NCBI GenBank assembly: GCA_035319625.1
Contig: DATHCH010000303.1
Coordinates: 1 to 56,039, forward strand
Direction of reading: 5' to 3'
Length of the DNA: 56,039 nt
Origin: Thermodesulfobacteriota bacterium
Lineage (GTDB): Bacteria > Desulfobacterota > BSN033 > UBA1163
Of the stretch, positions 689 to 7,310 are shown piece after piece. The translations under genes and the position numbers were made by a program. Every line of letters begins with the position of its first letter. Within the stretch, counting starts at the first letter, position 1. The notes beneath the pieces were generated by a model. It did not search any database. It saw only the letters and a list, made by a program, of their open reading frames with translations, and was not told the origin of the DNA.

Positions 689-1600
689 TTACTCTTCGAA
701 GCAGGCTTTTGGCAGGCTAGAGAGATCTAATCCATCATAAAACCTTTCTATCTTTGTAGAGAGTTCCTTGATCGCTCTTAAAAGACGCTCAGGAATGAAG
801 ACCGTTGCCCTGGCCACCTCTTCTTCATATAAGTTGTGTCTCAGGTATTGAGGTTCTTTATCGCCAAACCATATCTCAGCTTCCCACGATTTTTGATTGA
901 ATAACTCAGTTCTGAAATGTCTCTCGTTCAGGCGAAACGCATTCCCAGGAGAGATAAAGGTTAGTATCCCGTGATTGGACGTAATGTTTGGTGAAAGGTT
1001 GGCATACATGCAAATAAACTCTCTCCCAAAAGCAACTGAGCGGATCGATAGACTGTATCCATCCATCTTGCTTTCGATATATTCTTGGAGGAGATAGTGA
1101 TTTAATGTGAGATTTAATTTGCACAAAGGTGACGGTTCAGAGATTACCTCCAAATCCCTTCCACCCCTTCCAACCCGACGTTTCAAAACCGCTTTCTTCT
1201 TTCGCTCAATAAATCGGTCAACTTCCACCCGGTCTTCGGTGTCGAGGACTATCGTCTCAGGCATAGGCGCGATGGATTTGAGTAATTGGTATTGATTCCA
1301 TTTATCCTCAAGCCTCAGTCCGGGATGGAAGGTCTTTGGAAGGGGTCCCATCCCGTCCATCCATATCTTGAAAGGTTTGAGGGCTTCAATAAAGGGAAGG
1401 GAGTGAAGGTAATCCTTGAATGCCTTTCCGTAAACCTTTCGCGAGACCCCTTCGATTCGTCTGAAAATGTCCGAGGGCTTTCCTAAATGGATGAGATGAG
1501 TAAGATGATATTCATGAGCCCCACCTGGGAGGCCCACATTCACCTCCACCAGATAGAGTTTTAGTTCGGAAGTTAGAAGAAAATCAATCCCGAGATACAT
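689..1600 (-). CDS. ATP-grasp-like protein with apparently permuted motif order
   Basis: 303 aa. The N-terminus GIDFLLTSELKLYLVEVNVGLPGG looks like the usual C-terminal ATP-grasp Mg/ATP motif. A RimK-like start follows (EDKWNQYQLL...KKAVLKRRVGRGGRDLEVI, then SIRSVAFGREFICMYA...SNHG). GAGG RBS; possible TTGGAG-N18-TATAAT promoter at 1654-1683. Confidence 0.6.
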   Translation of the reverse strand: MYLGIDFLLTSELKLYLVEVNVGLPGGAHEYHLTHLIHLGKPSDIFRRIEGVSRKVYGKAFKDYLHSLPFIEALKPFKIWMDGMGPLPKTFHPGLRLEDKWNQYQLLKSIAPMPETIVLDTEDRVEVDRFIERKKKAVLKRRVGRGGRDLEVISEPSPLCKLNLTLNHYLLQEYIESKMDGYSLSIRSVAFGREFICMYANLSPNITSNHGILTFISPGNAFRLNERHFRTELFNQKSWEAEIWFGDKEPQYLRHNLYEEEVARATVFIPERLLRAIKELSTKIERFYDGLDLSSLPKACFEE

Positions 1601-1787
1601 ACCTCAATCCGAAAGTGGCAAGTAAGGAGTAGAAAGTGGAAAGTAACTAAACCATTATATACCGCTCACATGCCATACTCCAATGCTTGACGCATGACCC
1701 CAGGAATCGTTCGGTCATTACAAAAAAACAGATCATCACTCGTGCGACCTGTTCCTTTTTCCCTCGGATGCGTACGGTCACTCAATA

Positions 1788-1817
1788 GGGGCTCCCTCCC
1801 TTCTTGGGAAGGAGCCC
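1788..1817 (-). terminator. GC-rich stem-loop after the rSAM gene and short ORF
   Basis: Minus strand reads GGGCTCCTTCCC-AAGAA-GGGAGGGAGCCCC. The following U-tract is weak (TATTGAG). Confidence 0.4.
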
Positions 1818-1827
1818 GATCGGTAGC

Positions 1828-1890
1828 TTAGCAAGATGCTTTGCATTTGCAAAGGCTGGAGAATTTCTTGGCCACCTTCTTGATGGTCAT
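1828..1890 (-). CDS. candidate 20-aa Cys-rich peptide MTIKKVAKKFSSLCKCKASC (possible RiPP precursor)
   Basis: Below the ORF-track size cutoff. The ATG lies 1 nt after the rSAM TGA stop. A GGAGGTGA SD is formed by the last rSAM codons (GGA GGT GAA TGA) with 7-nt spacing, and a GC hairpin follows the peptide stop. Caveat: the TGCAAATGCAAAG stretch is itself a small palindrome. Confidence 0.35.
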   Translation of the reverse strand: MTIKKVAKKFSSLCKCKASC

Positions 1891-1891
1891 A

Positions 1892-3058
1892 TCATTCACC
1901 TCCTTTCAAAACACCCCTTGCATAACATTGAAAAAGATCGGGTTGCAATAAATCACCTTGGATTTTTGCCCGATAGCGACATCCGCCCCGACACTCTTCC
2001 ATCACAGGGCATTTGCAGGTGAGGTCCTTCAGGGCAATTCGACGAATTCGTGCCCAGCAAGTCCGCAGCCCTTCCTCAATCGATCCCACGGGTTCACCGC
2101 TAAAAAGTCCACACTTACAAATTGCTCCATTTGGAATTATAGCACAAAGATGAGCTCCGCAAGTAGAATTTTCTGCGGCACCGTGAAATCCTCCTCCAAA
2201 GCCATAACTGAGAAACCGGCCTGCCTGAGAGGCTGAAACCCAAAAATCCTGATTTGCTTTCAACCTCCCCTCTGCACACGGGACATCGACATTCCACTCC
2301 TCAATGTGTTTCGATTGAAGGAGGGAAGCAAGCTGGTCAAATTCAGATAAATTTCTACGATGAATCATCGTGGCCACAGAGACCCGAAGGTTAGCCTGTT
2401 GCAGATGGTCAATGGCCGCCATCGTTTTTTCGAAGGTGTCTTTCCCTCGAAGTAATTCATGACCCTCCTTCACTCCATCGAGACTGACCTGGACCTCGTG
2501 GACGCGGAGCTTTTGGGCGACTTCTTTGGTAATCAACGTGCCATTGGAAAGAAGTACGGATCGAAATGCATGGTTTCGCAGTATGTCGTTGATCTCCCAA
2601 AAATGAGGATGGAGCAGCGGTTCCCCTCCAGAAATGAGTAGCCTCAATCCTTGGATCTCTTCAAATTCTTCCAAAACGCTTTGAATCTGTTTCTTAGTAA
2701 GATCCCGATGAGATCCCTCTCCGATATAACAGTGGCGGCATTGGAGATTGCATCGGTCTGTAATCTGGATCTCAAGATAACGGAGCGATGGGATCGGCGA
2801 GGGATTCAAAGGCATCTTCCTCTGAAGCGGAGCTTCTGAGAAGGCGATCAAATTTTCAGAAAGGCAAAATTGGATGAATTCTTCGTCCTCCTTTCGGACA
2901 GGAGGGTTCTCACCCCGGCAGATCTTGAGCAGAAATTGATAGGCATCCGCATTGAGTTCGTAAAGTTCATCTTTTTCGATATCGTAGAGGTAGGGTTCTT
3001 CGAGGTTTTTTAGAACGGAGTGAGGGGTCAGAATGACGTATTTATTCTCGGAGGGCAT
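1892..3058 (-). CDS. radical SAM/SPASM-domain peptide-maturase-like enzyme with N-terminal PqqD/RRE-like domain
   Basis: 388 aa. CxxxCxxC cluster DRCNLQCRHCY. C-terminal auxiliary-cluster Cys pattern CGAHLCAIIPNGAICKCG...CKCPVMEECRGGCRYRA. N-terminal ~75 aa (LYDIEKDELYELNADAYQFLLKICRG) resembles PqqD-type recognition elements. Confidence 0.85.
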   Translation of the reverse strand: MPSENKYVILTPHSVLKNLEEPYLYDIEKDELYELNADAYQFLLKICRGENPPVRKEDEEFIQFCLSENLIAFSEAPLQRKMPLNPSPIPSLRYLEIQITDRCNLQCRHCYIGEGSHRDLTKKQIQSVLEEFEEIQGLRLLISGGEPLLHPHFWEINDILRNHAFRSVLLSNGTLITKEVAQKLRVHEVQVSLDGVKEGHELLRGKDTFEKTMAAIDHLQQANLRVSVATMIHRRNLSEFDQLASLLQSKHIEEWNVDVPCAEGRLKANQDFWVSASQAGRFLSYGFGGGFHGAAENSTCGAHLCAIIPNGAICKCGLFSGEPVGSIEEGLRTCWARIRRIALKDLTCKCPVMEECRGGCRYRAKIQGDLLQPDLFQCYARGVLKGGE

Positions 3059-3206
3059 CGGAAATCTCTTTATGGGTAATGATCTTCTTTTCCAAAAGTC
3101 GTTTAAGGATTTTGTAAGCCCCGCATTCCAGGTCCTTTTCAGATTCTTTATAGAAGTTACAATGTTTGCAGATCAGATCGATCAGAGACTCTTTATCCAA
3201 TTTCAT
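3042..3206 (-). CDS. 54-aa CxxC-containing protein, first gene of the rSAM operon
   Basis: Below the track cutoff. MKLDKESLIDLICKHCNFYKESEKDLECGAYKILKRLLEKKIITHKEISDALRE. GAGGAG SD 6 nt upstream. Its 3' end overlaps the rSAM start by 17 nt, consistent with translational coupling. Confidence 0.5.
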   Translation of the reverse strand: MKLDKESLIDLICKHCNFYKESEKDLECGAYKILKRLLEKKIITHKEISDALRE

Positions 3207-3230
3207 CAAATCTCCTCATCCCCCACGCTT

Positions 3231-3268
3231 CTCTCCCCCTCAAGGTGGGAAGGGTTAGGTAAGGGGGA
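3231..3268. repeat. GC-rich palindromic element (CCCCCT...AGGGGG family)
   Basis: TCCCCCT-caaggtgggaagggttaggta-AGGGGGA, in the divergent promoter region between the rSAM operon and nifU. Confidence 0.5.
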
Positions 3269-3378
3269 AACAATTCTATTTTGACCGATTTTGTTAAATA
3301 GTAATGAATAATAGGAATTGAATCAAGCTATTTTTGCGCATGGGATTTCCATAAAAAGGTATCCTTGAATTAAAAAGG

Positions 3379-3408
3379 TTGACGGTGTAAAGGGATTGAA
3401 TTTATAAT
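3379..3408 (+). promoter_or_regulatory. putative sigma-70 promoter of nifUS
   Basis: TTGACG-N18-TATAAT, about 35 nt upstream of the nifU ATG. Confidence 0.45.
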
Positions 3409-3442
3409 AACTTATGGTTAATAAAAATACTGGGGGTTTCCT

Positions 3443-4285
3443 ATGTGGGATTATACAGAGAAGGTCAAAGATCATTTTCTGAATCCGAGAAATGTTGGAG
3501 AGATCGAAAATCCGGACGGGGAAGGTGAAGTTGGGTCGCTGGCCTGTGGGGATGCTCTGAGACTCACCTTCAAATTGGATGAGAAGAAACGGATCAAAGA
3601 TGTGAAGTTCAAGACCTTTGGCTGTGCCAGTGCCATTGCTTCCTCTTCTGCCTTGACCGAGATCATCAAGGGGAAGACGCTTGATGAAGCAGCGAAGATC
3701 ACCAATCAGGATATTGCTAATTATCTGGGAGGACTTCCCGAAGAAAAGATGCACTGCTCGGTGATGGGAAGAGAAGCTCTCGATGCTGCGATCGCCAATT
3801 ATCGCGGACAGAAAGTAACGAAAGAAGATTTTGAGGTGATCTGCAATTGCTTCGGTGTGACGGACAGAGAAATTATCAAGGCCGTTCGTGAGAACAATCT
3901 CAAGACAGTGGAACAGGTGACCTATTACACCAAGGCCGGCGGAGGATGTGGCCAGTGCCATCCAAAGATCGAAGCCATCATCGAGAAAGTGAGAAAGGAG
4001 ATGGAGAAAGAGGCACCTCCTCCAAAGCCAGAGAAAAAGAAGTTGACGAACATTCAGAAAATCAAATTGATCGAAGAGACATTGGGAAGGGAGATCATCC
4101 CGGCTTTAAAAGCGGACGGTGGAGATTTAGATTTGATCGATATCGAGGGCAACAAGGTTTTGGTGGCATTGAGGGGAAAGTGTTCCTTCTGCCCCAGCTC
4201 TGAATTTACTTTGAAACAATATGTCGAATCGAAGTTAAGGGAATTTGTGAGCGACGATATTGAAGTAGAGGAGGTCAGGCCGTGA
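3443..4285 (+). CDS. nifU: NifU-type Fe-S cluster scaffold (IscU-like N domain, central 2Fe-2S domain, C-terminal Nfu domain)
   Basis: Scaffold cysteines in GSLACGDALRL, FKTFGCASAIASS and MHCSVM. Central CNCFGV...GGGCGQC. C-terminal CSFCPSS. Confidence 0.92.
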   Translation: MWDYTEKVKDHFLNPRNVGEIENPDGEGEVGSLACGDALRLTFKLDEKKRIKDVKFKTFGCASAIASSSALTEIIKGKTLDEAAKITNQDIANYLGGLPEEKMHCSVMGREALDAAIANYRGQKVTKEDFEVICNCFGVTDREIIKAVRENNLKTVEQVTYYTKAGGGCGQCHPKIEAIIEKVRKEMEKEAPPPKPEKKKLTNIQKIKLIEETLGREIIPALKADGGDLDLIDIEGNKVLVALRGKCSFCPSSEFTLKQYVESKLREFVSDDIEVEEVRP

Positions 4286-5463
4286 AGACCGTCTATGTGG
4301 ACAATAATGCAACGACAAAAGTAGCTCCAGAGGTGTTGGAGGTGATGCTCCCATATTTTTCCGAATATTATGGGAATCCATCGAGCATGCACTTCTTCGG
4401 AGGACAGGTTCAAAAGAAGGTGGATGAGGCGAGGGGGAAGGTGGCAGATTTTTTAGGAGCAGAGCCTTCGGAGGTTGTTTTCACCAGTTGTGGGACGGAA
4501 AGTGATAATGCGGCAATATTAGGGACACTCGATTCCTATACGGAAAGGCGGCACCTCATCTCCACCCGGGTGGAACATCCTGCCATTGGGAATGTGGCGA
4601 CCTATTTAGGCCGAAAGGGCTACCACATCACTGAACTTTCTGTGGATCGAGAGGGACGGTTAGATCTGGATGATTTGAGGGAGTCGCTTACCGATGAAAC
4701 GGCTCTGGTCACCATTATGTATGCCAATAATGAAACCGGAGTGATCTTCCCGATCGAAGAGATTGGTGAGATTGTCAAGGCGAGGGGAATTTCTTTTCAT
4801 AGCGATGCAGTCCAGGCAGCGGGGAAGATCCCTCTCAACATGAAAAAATCGAAGCTGGATATGCTTTCCATCTCCGGCCACAAACTCCATGCGCCCAAGG
4901 GGATTGGGGTTCTTTACATCCGAAAAGGAACGAAATTTTCTCCGTTCTTGATCGGTGGCCACCAGGAGAAAGGGAGAAGGGGAGGAACAGAGAACGTCCC
5001 TTACATCATCGGGCTTGGGAAGGCGTGCGAGCTGGCCAAAAAGCATCTCGATGAAGAGAACACAAGGGTCAAAGCCCTGAGGGATTATCTCGAGGCAAAG
5101 CTCTTGGAGAAGATTCCAAATACCTTAGTGAATGGGGATCGGGTTCACCGACTTCCCAACACCGTGAGCGTTAGTTTTGAATATGTCGAAGGAGAATCCA
5201 TTCTCCTTCTGCTTTCTGATCTCGGTATCTGCGCCTCTTCAGGCTCCGCCTGCACATCCGGTTCACTGGAACCTTCGCATGTCCTCAGGGCCATGGGTGT
5301 TCCTTTCACCGCTGCCCACGGGTCGATTCGTTTCAGCCTGTCCGTCTACAACACAAAAGAGGAGATGGATTATATCATCGAACATCTTCCGCCGATTATT
5401 CAGAGGTTGAGGGATATCTCACCTTTCTGGAAAGATTATCTCAAGTCCCAGGGGAAAGCATAA
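4282..5463 (+). CDS. nifS: cysteine desulfurase NifS
   Basis: PLP-lysine motif SISGHKLHAPKGIG and active-site loop SSGSACTSGSLEPSHVL. Start overlaps the nifU stop (GTGA). Confidence 0.93.
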   Translation: MKTVYVDNNATTKVAPEVLEVMLPYFSEYYGNPSSMHFFGGQVQKKVDEARGKVADFLGAEPSEVVFTSCGTESDNAAILGTLDSYTERRHLISTRVEHPAIGNVATYLGRKGYHITELSVDREGRLDLDDLRESLTDETALVTIMYANNETGVIFPIEEIGEIVKARGISFHSDAVQAAGKIPLNMKKSKLDMLSISGHKLHAPKGIGVLYIRKGTKFSPFLIGGHQEKGRRGGTENVPYIIGLGKACELAKKHLDEENTRVKALRDYLEAKLLEKIPNTLVNGDRVHRLPNTVSVSFEYVEGESILLLLSDLGICASSGSACTSGSLEPSHVLRAMGVPFTAAHGSIRFSLSVYNTKEEMDYIIEHLPPIIQRLRDISPFWKDYLKSQGKA

Positions 5464-6999: not shown

Positions 7000-7310
7000 A
7001 TGCCTGACTCGGCAAAAAGTCAACAGCCAAAACTCCTCGATCAAGTCCGACAGCTACTCCGTCTGCACCACTACTCTATTCACACCGAGCGATCCTACGT
7101 GGACTGGATCGTGCGGTTTGTTCGTTTCCACAGCATGCGGTCCCCTGAGGCCCTCTTCCCGCCGAAGCCAAGATCGAATCGTTCCTGACCGACCTCGCCG
7201 TACACGCAAACGTTGCTCCCGCCACCCAGAACCAGGCGATGAATGCCCTGGTCTTCCTTTACAAGCGCGTCCTCAACCATCCTCTGCAGGACAGCATCAA
7301 TGCCGTTTAA
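7000..7310 (+). pseudogene. intI: integron-integrase-type tyrosine recombinase, N-terminal fragment (frameshifted and truncated)
   Basis: PKLLDQVRQLLRLHHYSIHTERSYVDWIVRFVRFH, frameshift near 7162, then [48 protein letters not shown] and a stop. This matches the IntI N-terminal SAM-like domain. The catalytic domain is missing. Confidence 0.65.

Follow-up and report, generated by a model that had tools for sequence, protein, structure and literature searches.

A probable SCIFF-like peptide-modification cassette, comprising a radical SAM/SPASM enzyme, a three-cysteine partner and a 20-residue peptide, in uncultured bacteria and archaea

Pairs of a radical S-adenosylmethionine (SAM) enzyme bearing a SPASM domain and a short peptide have repeatedly led to new chemistry, giving the sactipeptides, the ranthipeptides, streptide, mycofactocin and pyrroloquinoline quinone (PQQ). 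Two of the described systems closest to the locus reported here are the SCIFF (six-cysteines-in-forty-five) peptide system, with its maturase CteB (Tte1186), and mycofactocin, whose precursor MftA has the C-terminus ...GVY. The SCIFF peptides and ranthipeptides are covered in PMC10114670, together with the sactipeptide synthases SkfB and AlbA, whose substrates are peptides containing Cys and which form thioether bonds; in SkfB a single auxiliary cluster is housed in a Twitch domain (PMC10114670). The complete SPASM motif has seven cysteines, arranged as CX9-15GX4C...CX2CX5CX3C...C (PMC5715301). The locus described here lies on contig DATHCH010000303.1, a 56,039 bp sequence from a Thermodesulfobacteriota metagenome-assembled genome (MAG), the whole of which is referred to below as the window. 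Its core is a three-gene minus-strand operon encoding a small partner protein, a radical SAM/SPASM enzyme (identical, at 100%, to database entry P0001) and a 20-residue peptide. We put at roughly 0.65 the probability that this cassette is an undescribed SCIFF-like unit, of the type in which a ribosomally synthesized peptide is modified post-translationally (RiPP), that makes a modified peptide.

Four open reading frames (ORFs), all on the minus strand, occupy positions 689-3206, and every coordinate in an initial annotation of the sequence, which had described four co-directional genes here, was re-verified. The first encodes a 54-residue protein with three cysteines (3042-3206, with ATG at 3206 and an alternative TTG start at 3209), and its last 17 nt overlap the start, at 3058, of the 388-residue radical SAM gene (1892-3058), an overlap that suggests translational coupling. 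The third is an unannotated 20-residue ORF of precursor type (MTIKKVAKKFSSLCKCKASC, 1828-1890), whose ATG stands 1 nt past the TGA stop codon of the enzyme gene and whose Shine-Dalgarno sequence, GGAGGTG at 1899-1905, lies 6 nt upstream, within the final codons of the enzyme. A GC-rich 12-bp hairpin of -26 kcal/mol (1789-1817) directly follows the peptide stop codon; it is kept in relatives though the stem sequences differ on both arms, and in other phyla a hairpin likewise lies 3' of the peptide gene, with a T-run in several loci. By its sequence context the peptide gene appears to end the operon, with a hairpin or terminator behind it. The fourth ORF encodes an ATP-grasp-like protein and is considered further below. 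An Rfam scan of the window found no RNA family.

Of 38 loci from Thermodesulfobacteriota, Nitrospirota, Rokubacteria, Actinomycetota and Archaeoglobus, a six-frame search finds the gene of the 20-residue peptide adjoining the radical SAM homolog in 32, which answers in the affirmative a check proposed with the initial annotation, namely whether a conserved ORF of fewer than 60 residues follows the stop codon of homologous enzymes. The peptide was found also in three contigs fetched for other reasons (L086, L096 and L097). The consensus is M-x-I-[KRT]-K-[VI]-x-[KR]-x4-5-C-K-C-[KNA]-x-[SA]-C, taking the form M[TS]I[KRQ]KV.KKFS..CKCKASC in Thermodesulfobacteriota, MTIKKVSKK.ATTCKCK[SG]SC in Nitrospirota, LKIKKVAKASASTCKCASSC in Rokubacteria, MRITKIPRRKGGTCKCNKSCG in Actinomycetota and MKIEKVRKESGICKCNASCA in Archaeoglobus, where the gene order is peptide, partner, enzyme. 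Peptides of the last two groups are longer by one C-terminal residue, G or A; a free Cys at the C-terminus is therefore dispensable. All 32 copies are preceded, 5-9 nt upstream, by an AGGAGG-type Shine-Dalgarno sequence. Among 27 unique DNA sequences of the peptide gene the mean entropy is 0.56, 0.52 and 1.29 at codon positions 1, 2 and 3 respectively, and this concentration at the third position is a signature of purifying selection acting on the protein. Judged on these sequence comparisons, the ORF is a real gene. Searches of NCBIfam and Pfam with E-values up to 10 return no match for the peptide, its motifs occur in no paper in the searchable literature, and a literature search on radical SAM RiPP mining in these phyla turned up nothing relevant. 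As the initial annotation anticipated, automated annotation passes over this ORF, which is never called in the public gene calls of related contigs; the 54-residue gene is sometimes called in them.

Several features of the enzyme-peptide junction and of individual copies were noted in the course of the comparison. The enzymes of the window's clade end in an invariant KGGE, and the Shine-Dalgarno sequence overlaps the ..K-G-G-E-stop codons (window 1892-1905); the invariance probably arises because the last enzyme codons also encode the peptide's Shine-Dalgarno sequence. Homologs of 396 residues (L001 6169-6191) have lost the stop codon and continue, in a different frame, for 8 codons of the peptide gene. 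Locus L010 has a disrupted peptide frame at 7180-7260 (..IQKVIRKFFGLCQRRPPC.., with start and stop out of register), which could be a decayed copy, through pseudogenisation, or a MAG assembly error. The same two explanations could apply to L086 (2474-3641), where gene calling splits the radical SAM gene into ORFs of 216 and 176 residues.

The enzyme has the architecture of a peptide maturase without belonging to a named family. Pfam recognizes only Radical_SAM (residues 97-247, E=6.5e-24), and the core (residues 94-250; 2309-2779) contains C103-x3-C107-x2-C110 within the sequence CNLQCRHC at residues 103-110. The predicted SPASM domain (residues 296-388; 1895-2173) has the pattern C300-x10-G311-x4-C316...C348-x1-C350-x5-C356-x3-C360...C378. 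In an alignment of 45 family members with 32-81% identity (A4), residues C103, C107, C110, C300, G311, C316, C348, C350, C356 and C360 are invariant and C378, the seventh SPASM Cys, is present in 44, so that both CX3CX2C and the full seven-Cys SPASM motif are in place; the spacing of the CxnC element is the canonical 2 in 21 members and 1 in 20, the window protein having CxC. On the isolated C-terminal 134 residues the TIGR04085 SPASM model reaches 26.8 bits (cut-off 27), and Pfam SPASM matches 8 of the 45 members. The SPASM-like C-terminal Cys pattern reported in the initial annotation is thus confirmed by the conserved motif and by a TIGR04085 score close to the cut-off.

Seventy-eight NCBIfam families match the enzyme, but each does so through the core region and with a score far short of its cut-off. 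The best scores, in bits against the cut-off, are WgkB 102/650, ScmE 100/400, NirJ 98.9/515 and MftC (TIGR03962) 92.3/265, followed by AhbC 87.6/650, AhbD 86.5/500 and PqqE 58/381; the AlbA model gives 59.5 against 850, and PapB 50.8 against 340 on the distant member P0279. Distant family members likewise fall below every NCBIfam equivalog cut-off, and the enzyme is outside all of the NCBIfam equivalog families tested. No clustering with heme-type or cofactor-type radical SAM enzymes, the outcome that the initial annotation had named as fatal to its proposal, is seen in the AhbD, NirJ, MftC and PqqE scores. By profile, the closest solved relatives are peptide maturases, with broad-profile matches to SkfB (6.6e-29), PqqE (4.5e-25), CteB (5.1e-21), SuiB (1.5e-15) and TigE (7.9e-12). 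An AlphaFold2 (AF2) model of the enzyme, built from a shallow alignment of 11 sequences at >=71% identity, has a mean predicted local distance difference test (pLDDT) score of 59.6; SuiB, SkfB and TigE are the top Foldseek matches of this poor model, and the SPASM region was judged by motif conservation and profile searches and not from the model.

Homologs are numerous. More than 100 close metagenomic homologs share 71-96% identity with the enzyme, and an exhaustive search of 50%-identity representatives gives 99 clusters at E <=1e-30, about 45 of them full-length. A scan of one genome per GTDB species recovers full-length homologs with 38-85% identity in Thermodesulfobacteriota, Nitrospirota, Rokubacteria, Actinomycetota (including Ca. 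Solincola), Archaeoglobus sp. UBA234 and an uncultured archaeon.

Ahead of the radical SAM core, residues 1-90 (2789-3058) are predicted to form a domain similar to PqqD and to the RiPP recognition element (RRE). In the AF2 model, residues 1-80 fold into four beta strands followed by two helices and one strand, the block pLDDT values being 65-86. When 35 N-terminal domains (profile A6) are compared by hhalign with nine annotated PqqD proteins from plasmid pqq operons (profile A7), the alignment has P=1.3e-4 and a probability of 53% over 44 columns, in the register expected, with LYELd-eAf-fL...G on mvkLN-tA-Il..dG and fl-ycl-EgLl on Fl..A...Wi; against a single PqqD sequence the result is insignificant (probability 1.7%), and the profile-profile comparison alone is informative. 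Hidden Markov model (HMM) alignments to CteB (5wgg) and TigE (8vpo) start before the core, at query residues 41 and 31 respectively, in pre-core regions which we take to be the RRE domains of those enzymes. The initial annotation had proposed a PqqD/RRE-like N-terminus and staked the proposal on an RRE fold; the predicted topology, the profile comparison and the CteB and TigE alignments make such a domain moderately well supported. Together with the cysteine motifs and the missing family match, the RRE-like domain upholds the view taken in that annotation of an uncharacterised RRE-radical SAM/SPASM locus of the peptide-maturase type.

The 54-residue protein (MKLDKESLIDLICKHCNFYKESEKDLECGAYKILKRLLEKKIITHKEISDALRE) has three invariant cysteines, C13, C16 and C28 in the window numbering, and occurs in several configurations. 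The single-repeat form is conserved upstream of the radical SAM gene in 19 loci, with overlaps of +13 to +22 nt between partner stop and enzyme start in relatives, and this overlapping layout is found in Thermodesulfobacteriota, Rokubacteria, Actinomycetota, Archaeoglobus and one Nitrospirota lineage. HMM searches of six-frame translations show that many Nitrospirota have in its place a protein of ~109 residues with two repeats of the module, transcribed divergently and with a fourth Cys in the second repeat; the Desulfobacteraceae locus L032 has a two-repeat partner upstream, on the strand of the enzyme gene. L013 encodes a single protein in which the two-repeat module precedes the enzyme as an in-frame N-terminal fusion, and the same fusion is present in five independent 50%-identity clusters of ~470-513 residues (P0242, P0245, P0248, P0253 and P0269). 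Counted together, adjacent and fused modules occur in 27 of 40 loci, and two two-repeat genes picked at random (P0188 and P0193) each sit beside a radical SAM gene and a peptide.

We detected 335 homologs of the partner, all named 'hypothetical' and none with a Pfam match. Pfam and NCBIfam searches with E-values up to 10 return nothing for the 54-residue protein and only a meaningless 14.9-bit Csp1 match for the two-repeat form, and the partner profile finds only noise among PDB sequences (E >=0.36). An AF2 model of the two-repeat protein P0127, from an 89-sequence alignment, is all-helical (pLDDT 74.6, predicted TM-score 0.70), and each repeat is a helix-loop-helix; by sequence position the first two cysteines fall at the end of helix 1 and the third just before helix 2. 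Foldseek finds no match to this model in the PDB (E >3). An accessory subunit that binds a metal or a cluster is favoured by the fusion to the enzyme, the duplication and the conserved Cys triad, and the 54-residue protein is most likely a partner and not a substrate. The suggestion in the initial annotation that this CxxC protein might be a second substrate is made unlikely by its duplication in Nitrospirota and its fusion to the enzyme in L013 and the five clusters.

In a Nitrospirota subclade (L014, L016, L018, L019, L023 and L030) the partner gene is absent within 6 kb, with enzyme and peptide kept; the peptide there mostly ends in ...CKCKGSC, and next come genes for a tetratricopeptide repeat protein, IspE, phosphoribosyl pyrophosphate synthetase and ribosomal protein L25. 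These genomes may encode the partner at another site, or may do without it.

Clustering of all ORFs of the 38 loci shows that enzyme, partner and peptide are the only genes common to the neighbourhoods across phyla, and it turned up no conserved protease, transporter or immunity gene; the cassette occurs as a single copy amid housekeeping genes. A conserved physiological role is likelier than that of a diversifying antibiotic, because the peptide is near-invariant across domains, protease, exporter and immunity genes are lacking and the surroundings are of the housekeeping kind. From the observed genes, their conservation and co-occurrence, the domain architecture and the fusions we infer the substrate, the chemistry and the part played by the partner as follows. 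The 20-residue peptide would be the substrate of the enzyme, whose RRE-like domain would bind the basic and hydrophobic N-terminal half, M-x-I-K-K-V-x-K-K. The radical SAM core would then abstract a hydrogen atom within the C-terminal C-K-C-K-x-S-C and, assisted by two SPASM auxiliary Fe-S clusters, install one or more intramolecular cross-links. The helical protein, whose association with the enzyme is seen in gene order and fusions, would act as a dedicated accessory subunit, probably a metal- or Fe-S-binding module that presents the thiol-rich substrate or passes electrons. Thioethers derived from Cys, of the sactipeptide or ranthipeptide type, are the favoured cross-links because SkfB and CteB, the closest relatives acting on Cys-containing peptides, form thioethers and because the core is thiol-rich; this assignment, drawn by analogy, is tentative and falls somewhat short of even odds. 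The product could be SCIFF-like or even cofactor-like.

A number of points weigh against a SCIFF-like peptide-modifying unit. The carriers are all uncultured, unstudied organisms. Pfam PqqD matches no family member, an HMM of the isolated N-terminal domain has no RRE match in the PDB and the hhalign probability to the PqqD profile is just the 53% given above. The SPASM region of the AF2 model is unreliable, with pLDDT <50. Core-only scores of ~100 bits are about equal for WgkB, ScmE, NirJ, MftC and AhbD, so the chemistry is not readable from sequence. The peptide is very short and has its three Cys within seven residues, which leaves little room for classical sactipeptide or ranthipeptide rings. 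No peptide is detectable, within the available sequence, in four loci with good flanks (L025, L028, L033 and L040); three further loci without a peptide are cut by contig ends or N runs. Finally, the Nitrospirota subclade described above has no adjacent partner gene.

The same enzymology could serve a different product, with the cassette making a peptide-derived redox cofactor or metallophore from the CKCKxSC segment and the partner acting as metallochaperone or scaffold. The 20-residue peptide is extremely conserved across phyla and domains, as is typical of PqqA and MftA and unlike antibiotic RiPPs, and a single-copy cassette that has housekeeping surroundings and lacks any transporter, protease or immunity gene is in keeping with such a role, as are the resemblance of the peptide, small partner and radical SAM/SPASM layout to MftA/B/C and the nature of all carriers found here, uncultured MAGs of lineages that we take to be anaerobic. 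Against this, no releasing peptidase or further tailoring enzyme is conserved nearby, no dependent oxidoreductase family co-occurs, the MftC and PqqE scores reach 92 of 265 and 58 of 381 bits, and the partner is not PqqD-like; we regard a cofactor or metallophore as unlikely. The corresponding extension, in which the peptide would become a thiol- or thioether-based intracellular redox or metal-binding species of anaerobic bacteria and archaea, a counterpart of mycofactocin or PQQ, with the partner as a new Fe-S- or metal-binding fold dedicated to the enzyme, is likewise an improbable outcome.

The 20-residue ORF might alternatively be a regulatory ORF or a subunit, with the enzyme modifying the CxxC protein, another protein in the manner of anSME, or a tetrapyrrole-type cofactor. 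NirJ, AhbD and AhbC are indeed among the top NCBIfam matches, one source names the homolog P0093 'AdoMet-dependent heme synthase', and four loci have no detectable peptide. The heme-type matches, however, cover only the generic radical SAM core and lie 5-7-fold under cut-off, whereas the enzyme has a predicted RRE-like peptide-binding domain and co-occurs with the peptide in 84% of loci, strictly adjacent and across domains of life; and some lineages have the CxxC protein fused to the enzyme, an arrangement that one would not usually expect of a substrate. The chances of this explanation are slim.

Equally doubtful is that, within the window's clade, the pathway includes as a fourth component the ATP-grasp-like enzyme, which would ligate an amino acid to the C-terminus of the peptide or form an amide or ester bond. 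The 303-residue gene (689-1600) matches Pfam ATP-grasp_3 with 33 bits against a cut-off of 23.2, and neighbour clustering confines it to the Thermodesulfobacteriota clade of the window, where it is immediately downstream and co-directional in 8 loci and shares many metagenomic contigs with the radical SAM gene. The expected ATP/Mg residues K140, E176, E19 and N21 are conserved, six aligned proteins are 62-76% identical, and the extra C-terminal G or A of the Actinomycetota and Archaeoglobus peptides might hint at extension chemistry. On the other side, an intrinsic-terminator-like hairpin on the minus strand (AACAGGTC...GATCTGTT followed by T7, 1722-1753) separates the peptide gene from the ATP-grasp gene and is kept in L002, L005 and L086 with a T7-T8 run. 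The two units also occur apart: L001 has the cassette alone, and L084 and L085 have a 74%-identical ATP-grasp gene 186 nt from NifU, beside NifU/NifS, with no cassette or peptide. No other phylum has the gene, and the peptide lacks the Asp or Glu residue that graspetide-type ligation would need; of the features of a graspetide system only the ATP-grasp domain itself is present. The initial annotation had counted this gene as part of the system and given it its own promoter. A consensus promoter scan finds no minus-strand promoter; a perfect TATAAT at 1654-1659 with a weak -35 element, preceded by the terminator-like hairpin, fits a separate transcription unit. Membership of the ATP-grasp gene in the cassette was rejected, since each occurs without the other and a terminator separates them, and from its sequence context it is probably a neighbour and not part of the system.

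That both short ORFs are chance open frames beside an orphan radical SAM enzyme, as their lack of Pfam and NCBIfam matches and the failure of gene callers to find the 20-residue ORF might suggest, has a negligible probability and is refuted by the conservation of the peptide across phyla with synonymous variation, the codon-position entropy, the Shine-Dalgarno sequence in 32 of 32 copies, and the 335 homologs and fusion forms of the partner.

The genes around the cassette vary between lineages. NifU and NifS (3443-5463) lie upstream in divergent transcription; a functional link to them was considered and rejected, as they flank the cassette only in the closest relatives. Because NifU and the ATP-grasp gene adjoin each other in L084 and L085, the cassette can be viewed as an insertion into, or a deletion from, a NifSU/ATP-grasp backbone: the NifS-NifU and ATP-grasp genes are neighbours at L084 1794-4924 and L085 678-2630, and have the cassette between them at window positions 689-5463. 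In L002, L003 and L086 a methyltransferase gene and a MazE-like gene are additionally present in this interval, which, with such differing contents, behaves as a variable insertion site. A palindrome of ~110 nt (GTCATTGCGAGCGATCCCGCC...GCAATGAC), resembling repetitive extragenic palindromic sequences or miniature inverted-repeat transposable elements, lies at L002 6290-6410 and is absent from the window; in L002 and L003 it sits between the peptide-gene hairpin and the terminator. A MacB-type ATP-binding cassette transporter (ABC_tran with MacB_PCD/FtsX) is encoded 3' of the ATP-grasp gene in several clade members only (L002 7529-10954, L003 7523-10949 and L086 6012-8936), at a position that lies past the end of the window contig.

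The ATP-grasp protein itself has an unusual layout, and its sequence alignments suggest that it is circularly permuted. Residues 3-30 (LGIDFL...EVNVGLPGG) align to residues 296-322 of tubulin-tyrosine ligase (TTL), its C-terminal Mg-binding strand, and residues 137-178 align to TTL 128-170. The Pfam ATP-grasp_3 match begins only at residue 98 ('DKW..YQLL...P.PET'), and the protein ends where the Mg-binding strand usually follows. This layout is kept in more than 100 homologs of ~303 residues. The Pfam CP_ATPgrasp models do not match the protein.

Genes for rubrerythrin- or ferritin-like diiron proteins recur beside the cassette, chiefly in Nitrospirota, and run convergently to the peptide gene. 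They lie +190 to +740 nt past the radical SAM gene on the opposite strand in L011, L015, L024, L026 and L027, with further sites at L096 1-441 and 4392-4859, L097 2035-2523 and L001 8231-8803. Their presence could reflect lineage synteny or a functional link to oxidative stress or metal handling.

The cassette is compact and widely distributed, and it appears in no curated family or searchable paper. Its precursor, which gene callers overlook, is among the shortest known and hardly varies from Thermodesulfobacteriota to Archaeoglobus, and the accessory Cys-containing helical module, sometimes fused to the enzyme, is without Pfam, PDB-sequence or Foldseek-PDB match. It illustrates how genes of fewer than 30 codons that complete a pathway are lost in automated annotation, and its three small genes should suffice for heterologous reconstitution.

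Among described systems the nearest analogue by architecture and conservation is SCIFF/CteB. Both are minimal pairs of a conserved Cys-rich peptide and an RRE-radical SAM-SPASM maturase (the RRE-like domain being a prediction here), both lack a protease and transporter and are spread through a whole group of anaerobes, and CteB is a strong profile match (5.1e-21, aligned from query residue 41). The peptide here, however, has 20 residues and 3 Cys (CKCKxSC), whereas SCIFF peptides have ~45 residues and 6 Cys; SCIFF is found in Clostridia, in contrast to the Thermodesulfobacteriota, Nitrospirota, Actinomycetota, Rokubacteria and Archaeoglobus of the present system; the three-Cys helical partner is without counterpart in SCIFF systems; and no SCIFF or ranthipeptide maturase model reaches its cut-off. 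By number of components the nearest analogue is mycofactocin, which likewise combines a short conserved peptide, a small partner and a radical SAM/SPASM enzyme, and MftC is among the best NCBIfam matches. MftB belongs to the PqqD family of RREs; in the present system the RRE-like domain is predicted within the enzyme, and the partner is an unrelated helical protein; in addition the MftC cut-off of 265 is missed, the peptide ends in CKCKASC and no mycofactocin-associated genes lie nearby.

Among solved structures SkfB is the closest in sequence (6.6e-29), and differs in that the window enzyme has the full seven-Cys SPASM motif; the AlbA model reaches 59.5 of its 850-bit cut-off. In sactipeptide systems the precursors have more residues and the clusters carry export and immunity genes. 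The PQQ system is alike in that the PqqE profile alignment spans both core and SPASM regions (query residues 90-380, 4.5e-25) and the N-terminal domain of the enzyme aligns to the PqqD profile (P=1.3e-4), and unlike in the PqqE score (58 against 381), in the lack of a Glu...Tyr pair in the peptide and in the lack of pqqB and pqqC. The radical SAM enzymes of heme metabolism (AhbD, AhbC and NirJ) differ in that no equivalog-level score is reached and a conserved adjacent peptide is present here. The cassette is a member of neither the SCIFF nor the mycofactocin family, because the tested family models and precursor features of both are lacking. It is of a known kind, a radical SAM/SPASM enzyme with a short precursor, equipped with a new precursor family, a new enzyme subfamily and a new accessory module.

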